Assembly (NCBI GenBank): GCA_048882485.1
Contig: JBHLRP010000074.1
Span: forward strand, 1 to 12,051
Length of the DNA stretch: 12,051 bases
Source of the DNA: Candidatus Thorarchaeota archaeon
GTDB taxonomy: Archaea > Asgardarchaeota > Thorarchaeia > Thorarchaeales > Thorarchaeaceae
Direction: 5' to 3'
Made by a program: the position numbers and the translations under genes. The notes below the pieces were generated by a model. That model made no database searches. It was not told where the DNA came from and was given only the letters and a program-made list of their open reading frames with translations. This document shows, one piece after another, positions 5,195 to 12,051 of the stretch (position 1 is its first letter; each line of letters starts with the position of its first letter).

Positions 5195-5593
5195 GTGTCA
5201 TCAAAGACTGAAATGCTTACTGAACTTCTTGAAGACCTAAGTCGCGCCTCCCAAGGTAATGTCCAGGCCAGTGTCATAATCTCCCGTTCTCAAGGACTAC
5301 CAATCTGCTCTCATTTTCCTCCTACAGATGATTCGGCTATGGTTCCTGAAGAGGATGTTATCGCAGGCAGGGCTATACAGATCGAGTCACAGACAATCAA
5401 GGTCTTCAAGCAGCTCAAACGGGGCCCTTTTGTAAGGATGCTCATTGAGGGTGAGTCTGGGTATGTCATTGTTTGCGACGCAGGAGAGGATGCGATACTT
5501 GCCGTCCTGACGACCAAGGGTGCAAATGTCGGTTACATGTTCTTTATGATGGCACGACACTCAAAGCGCATTGCGAACATCCTCGGTGGATAG
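5195..5593 (+). CDS. Roadblock/LC7 (MglB/LAMTOR2-like) domain protein
   Basis: 132 aa with the roadblock pattern L..L......V.ASVII....GLPI...IAG...L.RG....MLIEGESGYVIV..AGEDAILAVLT...ANVG. Strong SD and GTG start. Confidence 0.88.
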   Translation: MSSKTEMLTELLEDLSRASQGNVQASVIISRSQGLPICSHFPPTDDSAMVPEEDVIAGRAIQIESQTIKVFKQLKRGPFVRMLIEGESGYVIVCDAGEDAILAVLTTKGANVGYMFFMMARHSKRIANILGG

Positions 5594-8288: not shown

Positions 8289-9878
8289 ATGCAGAGTGGA
8301 GTCTTAATTGTAGATGCGCTGAGTGCTGGAACAGGACGCCGAACCAGTTCACGAGACTCCATTGGCTGCGGCCCACGTTCAGTAGCAGGTGTATTTGAGC
8401 GACATGAGATTCCGTGCCGCATTGCAAGAGTAGAGAGCGTGCTTTCGAATCCCAGACAAATGAGAAGTTTCCATCACATTGCTATTAGTGCCATGACTAT
8501 GGACCTGCCAGTTGTTAGGAAAGTAGCTGGGAAATGGAAACGAATGAGTCCAGAGGGGAGGCTACTTTTAGGAGGCCCAGTGACAGCCAAGCCAGTTGCA
8601 ACCCTGAAGGATGTTAAACCCGATATACTGGTCTTGGGAGAGGGAGAAGCCACTCTGGACGAGCTCGTTAGCATCGGATTTCTTGAGGAAAAAGTTGACT
8701 GTTCTGTTGTTCAAGGAGTCGCATTCCTCGATGAGAGGTCCCCCAAGATTACTCCATTAAGGAGATTTCTCACCCCTGAAGAGCTGTCTTCGGTATTTGT
8801 GCCTTCTTCAACAAGAATTGTCGACTATGATGCATATCAGGCTGCTCGGGTTTATGTAGAAACTGTAAGAGGCTGTTCCAATTTCAGACGAACGACAATC
8901 GCACTTCCCAGCGGTCAAGAATGCACCGATTGTAGCAACTGTGACTCGCCTGACTTGGAAGCAAGACTCGACTGCCCCGAGAACATTCCTCCTGGATGTG
9001 GATTCTGCAGTGTGCCCGGCACTTGGGGGCCGCCAAGAAGTCGTACAGAAGAAGCAATTTTGCGTGATGTTTCCGAGCTGATAGAACTTGGAGTGCACCG
9101 AGTTGTCTTGGAAGCCCCTGACTTCCTAGACTATCATCGAGGTCAAGATGGTTTAACTGATCCCTGTAGTCCACCAGCTAACAGCGAGGCCATGAGTCGG
9201 TTGCTTCATAGACTGGCATCATTACCGGAAGTCGCGGAAGGCAACGTGCATCTATCAATTGAGAATATGAAGGCCTGCTTGTTCACCGAGAAGGTTGCAG
9301 CTGTCCTATCAGAATCAATGCAGGGCATCTCTCCAAATATTGGCCTTGAGTCAGGGTCTGACGAACATCTGAGAAGTATTGGAAAATGTGGAAGCTCAGG
9401 CGACGTATTGCGAGCAGTGAGAATCGCAAAAGCTCATGATATGGCTCCATTTGTGTATCTGATATATGGTCTGCCTGGTGAAACTCCTGAAACTGTGAAG
9501 GCGTCTGTAAATCTGATGAGAGAAGTTGCTAAGGCTGGTGCAGAGAGAATAATCCTGTATGGCTTTAGGGCTCTGCCTGGATCTGCATTTGCAGACTTTC
9601 CTGAACCACATCCAAAGGACTCGATCAGCGCGCCACTTCGAAAGGAGGCGGCTCGAATTAACCGAGCGCGCAAGGACAAGCATGTAGGCACTATTGTCCG
9701 TGGAGTAGTGGCTGAACCCTCTTTGACTCATCGTGGATATTCCATGGTGTATCCATTGAGTGAAGGACCCCTAATGACAGTGAGAGGTGGGTATTCCCCT
9801 GGAACGGTGCTTCGAGTCAAAGTGGTAAAGGTTCTGAGTAGCGGTCTGGTCGAGGGCATTGTGACAGAGGACCGCTAG
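8289..9878 (+). CDS. Uncharacterised radical SAM protein with N-terminal cobalamin-binding-like domain and C-terminal TRAM-like domain
   Basis: B12-domain-type motifs IAISAMT, LLLGGP and DILVLGEGE. Core motifs YVETVRGC...GCGFC, RSR, NIGLESGS...L..IGK and YLIYGLPGET. C-terminal beta-rich VGTIVRGVV...GTVLRVKV......VEG resembles TRAM. Confidence 0.85.
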   Translation: MQSGVLIVDALSAGTGRRTSSRDSIGCGPRSVAGVFERHEIPCRIARVESVLSNPRQMRSFHHIAISAMTMDLPVVRKVAGKWKRMSPEGRLLLGGPVTAKPVATLKDVKPDILVLGEGEATLDELVSIGFLEEKVDCSVVQGVAFLDERSPKITPLRRFLTPEELSSVFVPSSTRIVDYDAYQAARVYVETVRGCSNFRRTTIALPSGQECTDCSNCDSPDLEARLDCPENIPPGCGFCSVPGTWGPPRSRTEEAILRDVSELIELGVHRVVLEAPDFLDYHRGQDGLTDPCSPPANSEAMSRLLHRLASLPEVAEGNVHLSIENMKACLFTEKVAAVLSESMQGISPNIGLESGSDEHLRSIGKCGSSGDVLRAVRIAKAHDMAPFVYLIYGLPGETPETVKASVNLMREVAKAGAERIILYGFRALPGSAFADFPEPHPKDSISAPLRKEAARINRARKDKHVGTIVRGVVAEPSLTHRGYSMVYPLSEGPLMTVRGGYSPGTVLRVKVVKVLSSGLVEGIVTEDR

Positions 9879-9983
9879 GATTTGTGGCTATAGCCAGTCA
9901 TAAGAAAAGCTTCATATGCAGAGAATTCCGGCGAGATGCTGAACGAACCACCAATTTTGTCAGGTTCTCCGAGGCGATATTTA

Positions 9984-10127
9984 ATGGTCTACATTTGCCA
10001 TAGCTGTCACAAAGAAGTCACTCCCGAAGGTTTGAAGACTCTTCCAGGTGTGAAATGTCCATACTGTGGAGGCCGAATTCTATACAAGATTCGTCCACCT
10101 GTTGTAAAGAGAGTAAAGGGAGTCTAA
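9984..10127 (+). CDS. rpoP: DNA-directed RNA polymerase subunit P (Rpo12), 47 aa
   Basis: MVYICHSC...VKCPYCGGRILYKIRPPVVKRVK Zn-ribbon signature. SD-like GAGGCGA at 9971-9977 precedes ATG 9984. Confidence 0.93.
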   Translation: MVYICHSCHKEVTPEGLKTLPGVKCPYCGGRILYKIRPPVVKRVKGV

Positions 10128-10149
10128 TTCATTCTGTCCTGAATCGAGT

Positions 10150-10248
10150 TCAAGGCTTGTACAACAGGTAAATCGCCGCAATTGCTGATGCCAGAAATAG
10201 GAATATGAAGAGTGCAGCTCCAATCTTGAGTCTTAGTGACCGTCTCAT
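10150..10248 (-). CDS. Putative 32-aa single-pass membrane microprotein
   Basis: Not in ORF track. MRRSLRLKIGAALFIFLFLASAIAAIYLLYKP*. The ATG overlaps the get3 stop (TAATG) and GGAG lies 10 nt upstream. Basic N-terminus followed by 22 consecutive uncharged, mostly hydrophobic residues. Confidence 0.7.
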   Translation of the reverse strand: MRRSLRLKIGAALFIFLFLASAIAAIYLLYKP

Positions 10249-11207
10249 TATTGCTCTTCTCCAATGAGAATCTTGCCTAGCTCTGTGAGCCCATCAATGC
10301 CTCGAATCTCTTTGTCGAATAGAGGCACTTCTGTTATATCAAGGTCCTTGTAGAGGTCCTTGATATCCACCATATTAGATTGTTGCATCTCTCTTCTTGT
10401 GCTGCAGAAGACACAGTCGGGATTGGGAGGTACAAGTTGATTCACAATTATGTTGCTAGCTGGGATGTTCCAGCTGTGAAGACTCCCCAGTAGTCTTTGG
10501 GTTTCAAACACAGCCATTGCTTCTGGTATCATCACAATTGCGAACTGAGTCATCTCAGGATCAGATAGCTGTATTCTTGCAGCAAGGATCTTGTCTTTTG
10601 TACGCTGCAACATCTCCCAGGATGACTCGTCCTGAGCACCACCTCCGAACATTGCCCTTAGTCCTGACATCATGGAACTCAATCTCTGTCGTAGAGTGAG
10701 CATTCTTCCAAGCCAGCTATCTAGTAGATCAGGCAGTTCTAGAAGCTTCAAGGTGTGTCCTGTCGGTGCTGTATCGAAGATTACTCTATCGTAGGATGTG
10801 TCTTCAAGAAACTCCAGCATCTTTCCAAATGCCATAGCTTCGTCTGAGCCAGGAGGCGACATTGCACCGATATCTCCAACAAGCTGTGATGCCATTTCCA
10901 ATTCTGGTCCAGCCACGCCATCTCCTATTGAAGTCTGAAATTCCTGCATGCCTTTCGCAGTGTCGATTTCCATTCCCCAGAGATTCTTCACTCCCTTGAT
11001 CTCAATTATCTCTCCGCCTGAAAGGTCCTGATCAAAGCTATCACTCAGACTATGAGCAGGGTCTGTTGACATCACTAGAGTTCGAAATCCATGTCTCGCT
11101 GAAAGAAGTGCCATTGCACCTGCACAACTAGTCTTACCAACTCCACCCTTTCCACCCGATAGGATGAACTTGATGTTATCATTGAAGACGATTTCATTTA
11201 TTGTCAT
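10248..11207 (-). CDS. get3: Get3/TRC40/ArsA-family ATPase, single-domain Get3-like form (319 aa)
   Basis: GGKGGVGKTS, STDPAHSLSD, PG.DEAMAF, DTAPTGHTL, Met-rich insert RMLTLRQRLSSMMSGLRAMFGG and CVFC (10404-10415). ATG 11207 follows SD GAGGT, so the track start 11294 is unlikely. Confidence 0.9.
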   Translation of the reverse strand: MTINEIVFNDNIKFILSGGKGGVGKTSCAGAMALLSARHGFRTLVMSTDPAHSLSDSFDQDLSGGEIIEIKGVKNLWGMEIDTAKGMQEFQTSIGDGVAGPELEMASQLVGDIGAMSPPGSDEAMAFGKMLEFLEDTSYDRVIFDTAPTGHTLKLLELPDLLDSWLGRMLTLRQRLSSMMSGLRAMFGGGAQDESSWEMLQRTKDKILAARIQLSDPEMTQFAIVMIPEAMAVFETQRLLGSLHSWNIPASNIIVNQLVPPNPDCVFCSTRREMQQSNMVDIKDLYKDLDITEVPLFDKEIRGIDGLTELGKILIGEEQ

Positions 11208-11278
11208 TCCCTGACCTCTAGCGGCACAGGCTCGTGTCAGTCTATTAATGCTTCCATGCATCCAGAAACACCATGCAT

Positions 11279-11287
11279 AAGTATAAG
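11279..11287. promoter_or_regulatory. AT-rich TATA-like element in the divergent get3 / AlkP-like intergenic region
   Basis: Reads cTTATACTT toward get3 and TATAAG toward the + strand gene. Confidence 0.35.
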
Positions 11288-11368
11288 CGCGCAATATCTA
11301 ATGACGTACGACAAGGAGTCTCATCACGTCTGAGCCCCCCAAAAAGCGCAAACTCTGAGGATATCTCT

Positions 11369-12051
11369 ATGTCATCTTTCCCACAAGTAAGGACTTCAGC
11401 ACTCGAATTTCCATCCACCATTATTCGATTGATGGGAATATCTCCTCCTGAGGGAATGCCGCCACCAAATGCAGAGATACTTGCGAAGTTCAATCCCTCT
11501 GCAGTTGTCATGGTCATCATCGACAACTTTGGGCTATTTGAGGCAGTGGTCTACAAGCCTGAGGCTATGATAAAGAATCTAGAGGCACTTGCATTGATTG
11601 AAACTGATGATCCCTATGCAATCCCTCTGATGACAGCTCTGCTTCGCCCCTTGGATGGATTTCACATCATGAGGCATGCTCGTAACTACGGGAAGTCAGT
11701 CAAACTGATTTGCAGAGAAGAGGACACAGACATCCTTGGTTTTGATTCAGGTATTACCGTGCACAAGCGTGATGATATGGCGACATATGTGGAGGCGACA
11801 AAACACATTTTCAAGACAGAAGTGCTCTATCTCCACTTTCTCGACTTTGAGAGTCTCTATGCTCAGTATGGCCATAGAACTCCACCTAAGACACTCCTTG
11901 AGAAGATTGTGCGAAGAACTGACAACTGGGTGAAGGTGTTGCTAAAACAGGCAAGGGTTGGGACGTTATTCATCGTGATAGGGAATCATGGTAGACATCC
12001 AATACCCTTGGATTATGAAGGCAAGCTAGCAGAGTGGCGGAAGGCCAATGC
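11369..12051 (+). CDS. Divergent alkaline-phosphatase-superfamily (NPP/metalloenzyme-like) protein, 3' end outside the window
   Basis: Not in ORF track. Open for 227 codons to the window edge: MSSFPQVRTSALEFPSTIIRLMG...AVVMVIIDNFGL...VLYLHFLDFESLYAQYG...RTDNWVKVLL....GTLFIVIGNHGRHP. GAGG at 11357-11360. An alternative in-frame ATG exists at 11273. Fold assigned by eye. Confidence 0.65.
   Translation, partial: MSSFPQVRTSALEFPSTIIRLMGISPPEGMPPPNAEILAKFNPSAVVMVIIDNFGLFEAVVYKPEAMIKNLEALALIETDDPYAIPLMTALLRPLDGFHIMRHARNYGKSVKLICREEDTDILGFDSGITVHKRDDMATYVEATKHIFKTEVLYLHFLDFESLYAQYGHRTPPKTLLEKIVRRTDNWVKVLLKQARVGTLFIVIGNHGRHPIPLDYEGKLAEWRKAN

Follow-up and report, generated by a model that had tools for sequence, protein, structure and literature searches.

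What is a 32-codon ORF that shares one nucleotide with the stop codon of an Asgard get3 gene, and does its product belong to the Get3 machinery? How archaeal Get3 finds its clients and the membrane is the broader question that gives the peptide its interest, and the Asgard archaea are the expected root of the eukaryotic pathway. SecE and Sec61-beta are examples of tail-anchored clients of Get3/TRC40, and proteins of the tail-anchored type are too short for co-translational capture by SRP. The stretch of DNA analyzed here (hereafter the window) comprises 12,051 nt of a Candidatus Thorarchaeota contig. An earlier note on this DNA had read get3 and the ORF as a dedicated two-gene module, with the peptide acting as a client, a receptor or tether, or a regulator, and had added the caveat that the TAATGA at the junction might be a plain tandem stop.

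Results

The get3 junction and the short ORF

The microprotein gene lies on the minus strand of the window at 10150..10248, with an ATG start, 32 codons, and a TGA stop. Its product has a basic N-terminal arm (residues 1–8), a transmembrane helix (residues 9–30), and a two-residue tail. The A of the ATG at 10248 is also the last base of the get3 stop TAA (10250-10248, minus strand), resulting in a 1-nt overlap, and a Shine–Dalgarno-like GGAG (10259..10262, minus strand) lies within the final get3 codons, 10 nt before the ATG. The arm carries the basic residues R2, R3, R6, and K8, the stretch I9-Y30 (10159..10224, minus strand) is uncharged, and the tail reads KP. The helix codons include the invariant F18 (10197-10195) and S21 (10188-10186), as well as the near-invariant L17 and A25. 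The geometry that the earlier note had described for the gap between get3 and rpoP agreed with the sequence throughout, including the coordinates, the overlap, the GGAG spacing, the charges, and the tail.

The stop of rpoP (9936..10127, plus strand; true start maybe nearer 9981-9984) is 120 bp from the get3 stop. Past the microprotein ORF, 22 bp are left before this convergent stop, which leaves no room for a longer gene. While rpoP bounds the get3–microprotein unit downstream, a divergent phosphodiesterase/phosphopentomutase-like gene (11273..12051, plus strand; likely start near 11369, judged from relatives) bounds it upstream and remains close to get3 in Hermodarchaeia, f19, f7, and f18. 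A weak 6-bp hairpin over the microprotein stop (10138..10154, minus strand; consensus −5 kcal/mol, two pairs with compensatory change) was seen solely in the genus of the window genome. Four contig sets compared at the locus contained no indels and no joints, a comparison that says nothing on expression.

Elsewhere in the window, a Roadblock/LC7 protein (5195-5593, plus strand) and a YgbA-like protein (PF11756; 3924-4271, plus strand) are ordinary and encoded among information-processing genes. The gene at 8289-9878 (plus strand) encodes a B12-binding radical SAM protein, in which a Cys-rich insert of ~40 residues parts the first cluster cysteine from the other two.

The upstream ATPase

The get3 gene (10248..11207, minus strand) encodes a single-domain ATPase of the Get3/TRC40 type with 319 aa, a deviant P-loop, a DTAPTGH switch II, Met-rich groove helices, and a CxxC motif. 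The protein matched PF02374 with an E value of 3e-85 and TIGR00345 with 289 bits (cut-off 135). The closest archaeal structures were 3zq6 (E 1e-75) and 3ug6 (E 1e-71), well ahead of E. coli ArsA (1f48), which was also outranked by eukaryotic Get3 proteins. The CxxC zinc dimer motif (C265-C268; 10404..10415, minus strand) was present in 100 of 100 aligned canonical Asgard Get3 rows. The putative groove is rich in Met, with five such residues between positions 161 and 215, and this region aligns to 3zq6 with small gaps only.

An ArsA arsenite pump was rejected as the identity of the get3 product, which has one domain and just three Cys (28, 265, 268); the pump models reached 121-149 bits, where their cut-offs are 650 and 800, and no ars genes were found in the window. 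With TIGR00345 over its cut-off, the ArsA models far under theirs, and both the CxxC and the Met-rich helices in place, the reading of the upstream gene as Get3-like was upheld. The window genome also contains a tandem pair of distant ArsA/Get3-family genes lacking CxxC (G000:C47:13024-14977, minus strand), which is common to part of the Thor genomes.

Evidence that the ORF is a gene

A matching ORF was found behind get3 in all 62 Thor loci that contained the get3 stop, representing 43 distinct sequences, of which 42 encoded 32 aa and one encoded 31 aa. The start codon was ATG in 28 of these sequences, TTG in 12, and GTG in three, and all three reading frames relative to get3 occurred. The TAATG junction was found in seven of the 43 sequences; in the others, the two genes overlapped by 4 nt or lay 0-12 nt apart. 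Because the starts, the spacing, and the frame all change, a tandem stop cannot account for the ORF, and the caveat raised earlier is refuted. In 42 of the 43 loci, the spacing fell within the range of −8 to +10, which is regarded as predictive of termination–reinitiation (PMC10666635). A 4–6 nt match to GGAGGTGA preceded the start in 42 of the 43 loci, and in 35 of those 42 the distance of the GGAGGTGA match from the start fell into one 4-nt window. The position of this Shine–Dalgarno-like motif tracked the microprotein start more tightly than the get3 stop.

Across the three identity bands with the closest pairs, the pN/pS of the microprotein was 0.19, 0.22, and 0.27, and codon-position conservation was lowest at the third position (0.50 vs. 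0.72 and 0.83). No frame-breaking indels were found in the Thor sequences, and the alternative frames across the gene contain stops. K8, F18, and S21 were invariant across the Thor microproteins (F18 and S21 in 40 distinct peptides), and R2 and K6 were conserved in the arm. The expectation of a conserved short ORF with a transmembrane helix and synonymous-biased substitution behind get3 was thereby borne out for 43 distinct Thor sequences. Of the 15,993 ORFs in the genome that run from a first ATG and encode 25-45 aa, two had a comparable hydrophobic span plus at least three basic residues up front. Searches of 1.84 billion database proteins returned 12 representatives, all of 32-36 aa, and where gene callers had predicted the microprotein, it was always named hypothetical or left unnamed.

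The chance that the frame is not a gene, and reflects either coincidence at a TAATGA tandem stop or the shadow of a conserved DNA element, is close to nil. It is true that TAA TGA stands in frame with get3 in the window genome and that most gene callers overlooked the ORF, but neither explains a constant length maintained through varying start codons, offsets, and frames, a pN/pS of ~0.2, stops in the other frames, and a ribosome-binding motif that follows the start. Judged by these substitution and length patterns, the microprotein ORF is shown to be a protein-coding gene under purifying selection, with one copy per genome.

Distribution and gene neighborhoods in Asgard genomes

The profile search yielded one microprotein copy in each of the 57 other Thor-family genomes with a completeness of at least 85%. 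Beyond Thor, matches were obtained in the sister family f2, in f6, in six of seven Hermodarchaeia (f12), in both genomes of one Baldrarchaeia family (f15), and in all six genomes of f19. The members, whether linked to get3 or not, measure 27-38 aa across these groups. The gene is located directly behind get3, at a spacing that suits coupling, in Thor, f2, f6, Hermodarchaeia, and f15, and this adjacency appears on four separate branches of the Get3 tree, a quick tree that was used descriptively only. The flanks have been swapped around the pair, with a beta-CASP nuclease gene downstream in Baldrarchaeia and f6, an rpoP-like gene in Hermodarchaeia, and the convergent rpoP in Thor, where get3 and the microprotein gene form a unit enclosed by a divergent and a convergent gene. 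The beta-CASP nuclease gene also follows get3 in several families, at loci L074, L076, L077, L079, and L081, with the peptide between them or absent, which is probably the older gene order. At L292 (G357:C292), the peptide is encoded a second time ~600 bp behind the first copy, in a form that is degenerate at the N-terminus.

A different arrangement was found in f19, which is the sister of Jordarchaeia in the same quick tree. In a closed f19 genome, the microprotein gene is 870 kb from get3 (1.906 vs. 2.779 Mb) and stands alone between a small GTPase gene and a DUF763 gene. The peptide was not detected in the Odin, Jord, f7, f8, f13, and Heimdall-type genomes searched, several of which are closed and carry a canonical get3. 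Weak matches in Heimdall-type genomes were located inside long ORFs and were dismissed as signal anchors. A 38-aa member or look-alike far from get3 was observed in f18 (L215:3247-3363), a single case in a genome labelled Heimdallarchaeota. The proposal of a dedicated two-gene module fits Thor, where the pair forms a unit whose spacing lies in the coupling range at 42 of 43 loci. It does not fit f19, where the two genes are unlinked, the genomes with get3 in which no peptide was detected, or the closed Lokiarchaeia genomes described below, which keep a probable homologue without canonical Get3. The proposal is thus partly supported, but not as a general rule.

Other genes also adjoin get3. In six Asgard families lacking the downstream peptide, get3 is immediately preceded by a co-directional TRAP-beta-like gene that matches PF05753 at E 9e-18 to 5e-5 (L074:2122-2967, L075:2383-2982, L078:4152-4760, L079:2243-2851, L085:2386-2964, and L087:4089-4820). 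A protein of 119-126 aa that has three or four helices and falls into no Pfam family is encoded next to get3, upstream on the same strand in Hermodarchaeia and downstream and convergent in f19 (L203:4248-4607, L067:4006-4383, L205:2028-2384, and L286:2498-2857). It is a candidate membrane partner of Get3 and was not found by tblastn of the window genome. The window genome does contain two DUF106 genes of the EMC3/TMCO1/Get1 family (G000:C8:12534-13007 and G000:C52:20193-20666), one of them ~3.5 kb behind secY, as well as an EMC6-like gene (C25:7950-8183) that is separate from the microprotein gene.

A probable Lokiarchaeia form

Weak matches led to a protein of 41-52 aa in Lokiarchaeia, whose basic arm is longer and whose helix has the Ser in the same register. 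This form was present in 70 of 106 f9 genomes and eight of nine f24 genomes, as well as in f28 and f30. It follows a gelsolin-like gene of 230-246 aa in 25 of 30 loci, usually by 8-58 nt (L340:1492-1617, L351:3234-3371, L321-L350), and a VTT/DedA-domain gene often comes next. In f28 and f30, it is found behind or near DNA polymerase B genes. In L. ossiferum, it is annotated as the hypothetical protein NEF87_005016.

A profile built from the Lokiarchaeia sequences alone placed the window ORF at the top of 90,559 frames from the window genome (E 0.025), and in f6, f2, and one Thor genome its best genome-wide match was the peptide linked to get3 (E 8.9e-7, 2.7e-5, and 8.8e-5). HHalign of the Lokiarchaeia profile against the Thor profile gave 94% and a score of 32.4, compared with 15.4 ± 3.1 for shuffled helix columns (maximum 26.8, n = 60). 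The reciprocal search detected the Lokiarchaeia form in three of five Loki genomes. Since the Lokiarchaeia seeds were originally picked with the Thor profile and the sequences are short and of low complexity, we regard homology with the get3-linked microprotein as a good probability that stops short of certainty.

Three closed f24 genomes keep the Lokiarchaeia form and do not have the canonical get3 that a relative carries. The sole full-length family member in these genomes is a divergent ArsA-family paralogue with altered switch motifs and no CxxC. In f24, this ATPase of 410-451 aa is encoded between dnaG-like and tgt-like genes (L382:2005-3264, L383, L384, and L386). If the Lokiarchaeia form is homologous, Get3 would not be needed for insertion of the family.

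Features of the peptide

The microprotein contains a single hydrophobic helix within ~30 residues of the C-terminus and no second helix. Four basic residues occur among the first eight in 39 of 41 Thor peptides, and an N-in/C-out topology is predicted from the positive-inside rule. The hydrophobicity of the window helix (KD19) is 2.6. The conserved Ser is retained in 94% by weight across all families, while conservation on one face of the helix, measured as helical periodicity, was not significant (permutation p =.095). A Gly directly precedes this Ser in Hermodarchaeia and f19 and in four of 42 Thor peptides, and is absent in Baldrarchaeia and the Lokiarchaeia form.

Searches of Pfam, NCBIfam, the PDB, and the ESM Atlas with the microprotein family gave no significant family match, and no literature on the family or on a get3-linked microprotein was found in the mostly open-access literature searched. 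Likewise, no client gene overlapping get3 was described in that literature. An identity as SecE or Sec61-beta was rejected, as the TIGR00327 and PF03911 families were found elsewhere in the genome as separate genes. These comparisons show the microprotein to represent an undescribed Asgard family of predicted single-helix membrane proteins. A complex prediction of the peptide with SecY, SecE, and Sec-beta of the window genome gave a score of 0.00 and a mark of 0.32, which by calibration speaks neither for nor against an interaction.

Discussion

The preferred reading

Our preferred reading, to which we assign a probability of about 0.4, is that the microprotein is an ancient single-span accessory protein and a co-translated client of Get3, and that it rests a Ser-centered face on a membrane partner, with the insertion machinery as the likeliest candidate. 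Ribosomes ending get3 would reinitiate on the microprotein gene, so that both products are made together. The 32-residue peptide would still have its helix in the ribosome tunnel at termination and would therefore need a post-translational route, for which freshly made neighboring Get3 is a likely carrier; this would also explain why the adjacency was kept. Once inserted in the N-in/C-out orientation, the peptide may pack on a specific membrane partner via the face formed by F14, L17, F18, S21, and A25, in the manner of small accessory subunits. The likeliest partner would be a DUF106/EMC6-like insertase, or SecY-E-beta with TRAP, where the peptide could act as a stabilizing or gate-occupying helix. 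The link to Get3 may then ease supply and co-expression without making the peptide an obligatory receptor. Our confidence is highest in the coupled translation, followed by the post-translational delivery and then the specific intramembrane partner.

The strict conservation of F18 and S21 within the helix, together with the retention of the Ser in all families, suggests a packing surface for a membrane protein, although the one-face pattern by itself is not significant, and the conservation inside the helix appears to exceed what capture in a hydrophobic groove would need. The family survives away from get3 and probably also without Get3, so its function would not depend on Get3. On this view, the peptide is a small membrane protein of ancient origin with its own role, probably delivered by Get3 but not an obligatory part of the Get3 machinery. 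The overlap has been kept for long, which argues for an advantage of synthesis next to Get3, the simplest being that Get3 carries the peptide. The insertion machinery was chosen as the partner because the other conserved neighbors of get3 are of that kind. The partner is thus named from gene context that belongs to get3 and not to the peptide, whose Lokiarchaeia form follows a gelsolin-like gene, and the proposal should be read with that in mind. Among the roles of client, receptor or tether, and regulator put forward in the earlier note, that of a client is the most plausible, though not of a dedicated one.

Alternative explanations

The microprotein might instead be a real small membrane protein with a job unrelated to Get3 or protein insertion, such as a transporter regulator or an anchor tied to the actin system, which remains behind get3 only for lack of its own promoter at that position. 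We consider this somewhat unlikely. The three different neighborhoods across the Asgard groups would fit it, as would the gelsolin-like gene ahead of most Lokiarchaeia copies (25 of 30 loci) and the fact that presence or absence of the peptide tracks Get3 in neither direction. Among tightly spaced gene pairs in Haloferax, 45% encode parts of one complex and 55% do not (PMC10666635), so that tight spacing is compatible with such a passenger. It is harder to reconcile with an adjacency to get3 that recurs on four separate branches of the Get3 tree and outlasted the replacement of both flanking genes. Another possibility, and a quite unlikely one, is that the basic arm captures Get3 while the helix packs on a DUF106/EMC6-like insertase, providing the functions of Get2 in trans. 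Archaeal EMC6-like proteins are the proposed origin of the membrane part of Get2 and lack its Get3-contacting extension (PMC8675477), which the peptide would supply. The invariant K8 and the conserved R2 and K6 of the arm, the presence of DUF106 and EMC6-like genes in the window genome, and the 1:1 supply that coupling would give all point the same way. Get2, however, uses a 40-residue helical domain with an RERR motif on a linker of ~110 residues (PMC8530227), whereas the arm has eight residues in Thor and 4–5 in f19, abuts the helix, and contains no RERR motif, and four basic residues beside a helix are expected from the positive-inside rule anyway. Moreover, both Get3 without the peptide and, probably, the peptide without Get3 were found. 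The acidic C-terminal patch of yeast Get3 reads DELYED; the corresponding Asgard patch is no more acidic in peptide-bearing lineages than in those without the peptide. With no RERR helix, no long linker, and one helix only, the peptide fails the defining features of Get2, which weighs against the receptor or tether role proposed earlier.

An outside chance is left for a dedicated regulator of Get3, either a co-made pseudo-substrate in the groove or an uninserted peptide that reports insertion capacity. The tight coupling, the constant length in Thor, and a hydrophobicity that suits the Get3 groove (KD19 of 2.6 in the window) are in keeping with this role, but in f19 selection maintains the gene at a great distance from get3, where such a role would be hard to keep. 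Since the gene is located downstream of get3, it also cannot act in cis as a leader or sensor peptide. A signal-peptide-like precursor, from which signal peptidase would release a hydrophobic signaling peptide of 7–9 residues by cutting after small-x-Ala, is highly improbable. The n-h-c layout matches, and the small-x-Ala motif occurs within residues 20–27 of 24 of the 41 Thor peptides; it is missing in the other 17, the conservation peak precedes the cut site instead of lying in the released part, and the families differ in both the length and the sequence of the C-terminal part.

Significance

As far as the literature searched indicates, the get3–microprotein arrangement has not been described before. 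The microprotein represents a new family, although proteins of its general kind are known, and its tie to the GET question is weaker than first proposed. A single-copy microprotein found across half of the Asgard classes and mostly unannotated shows that the known set of Asgard membrane proteins is incomplete. It is a 32-residue candidate for tests with purified Get3, with the invariant K8, F18, and S21 as mutation targets, and the probable homologue NEF87_005016 makes the family testable in living cells of the cultured L. ossiferum. It is possible, though we think it unlikely, that the peptide is a split-Get2 tether on a DUF106/EMC6-like insertase or a RAMP4-like helix at the SecY gate that predates eukaryotes. 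If either were true, the Asgard archaea would hold a precursor for a component thought to be specific to eukaryotes.

Comparison with known systems

The upstream ATPase resembles the archaeal Get3 homologues 3zq6 and 3ug6 in its single domain, CxxC, and insert region, and differs in that no microprotein has been reported alongside them. Several archaeal Get3 homologues bind tail anchors, but only one of the four tested delivered a substrate, and a TRC40 insert is no guarantee of tail-anchor targeting (PMC6593721). The microprotein shares with Get2/CAML a basic N-terminal stretch on a membrane anchor and functional proximity to Get3. Unlike Get2, which has three helices, it has one and lacks the three-helix domain that pairs with the Oxa1-family subunit, and the window genome encodes the EMC6-like candidate ancestor of Get2 separately.

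RAMP4/SERP1 occupies the Sec61 lateral gate, has a ribosome-binding hook at about residues 3-28, and is described as specific to eukaryotes (PMC11186639). The microprotein has a similar tail-anchored helix, hydrophobic in its first half and with small residues and a Ser at its midpoint, and a Gly stands before the Ser in the Hermodarchaeia and f19 members; one family member matched PF06624 with an E value of 0.35. In contrast to RAMP4, the Thor form has no hook or linker, only eight residues precede its helix, and the kink glycine is missing from most Thor, Baldrarchaeia, and Lokiarchaeia members. A PF06624 search of ten Asgard genomes did not retrieve the microprotein gene, and the family profiles did not retrieve RAMP4 from the PDB at E values up to 10. 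In these profile searches, the helix of cytochrome c oxidase 7C outscored RAMP4, which shows the noise level. Homology to RAMP4, for which a motif in the helix had spoken, was not supported by the genome and PDB searches.

Compared with tail-anchored proteins in general, the microprotein is alike in its basic cytosolic flank, in a helix that ends two residues from the C-terminus, and in being too short for co-translational capture by SRP, and unlike them in being nearly devoid of a cytosolic domain and in having no sequence relation to SecE or Sec61-beta. In overall build, it resembles DUF4044/Prli42 of Firmicutes, the sarcolipin-type regulins, AcrZ, and KdpF, which have 30-50 aa, a basic N-terminus, and one helix, and often go unannotated, but it differs in giving no significant profile match to any of them. 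DUF4044 appeared at rank 12 with a score of 0.75 for the Lokiarchaeia form in the ESM Atlas feature search, which serves as a lead only.
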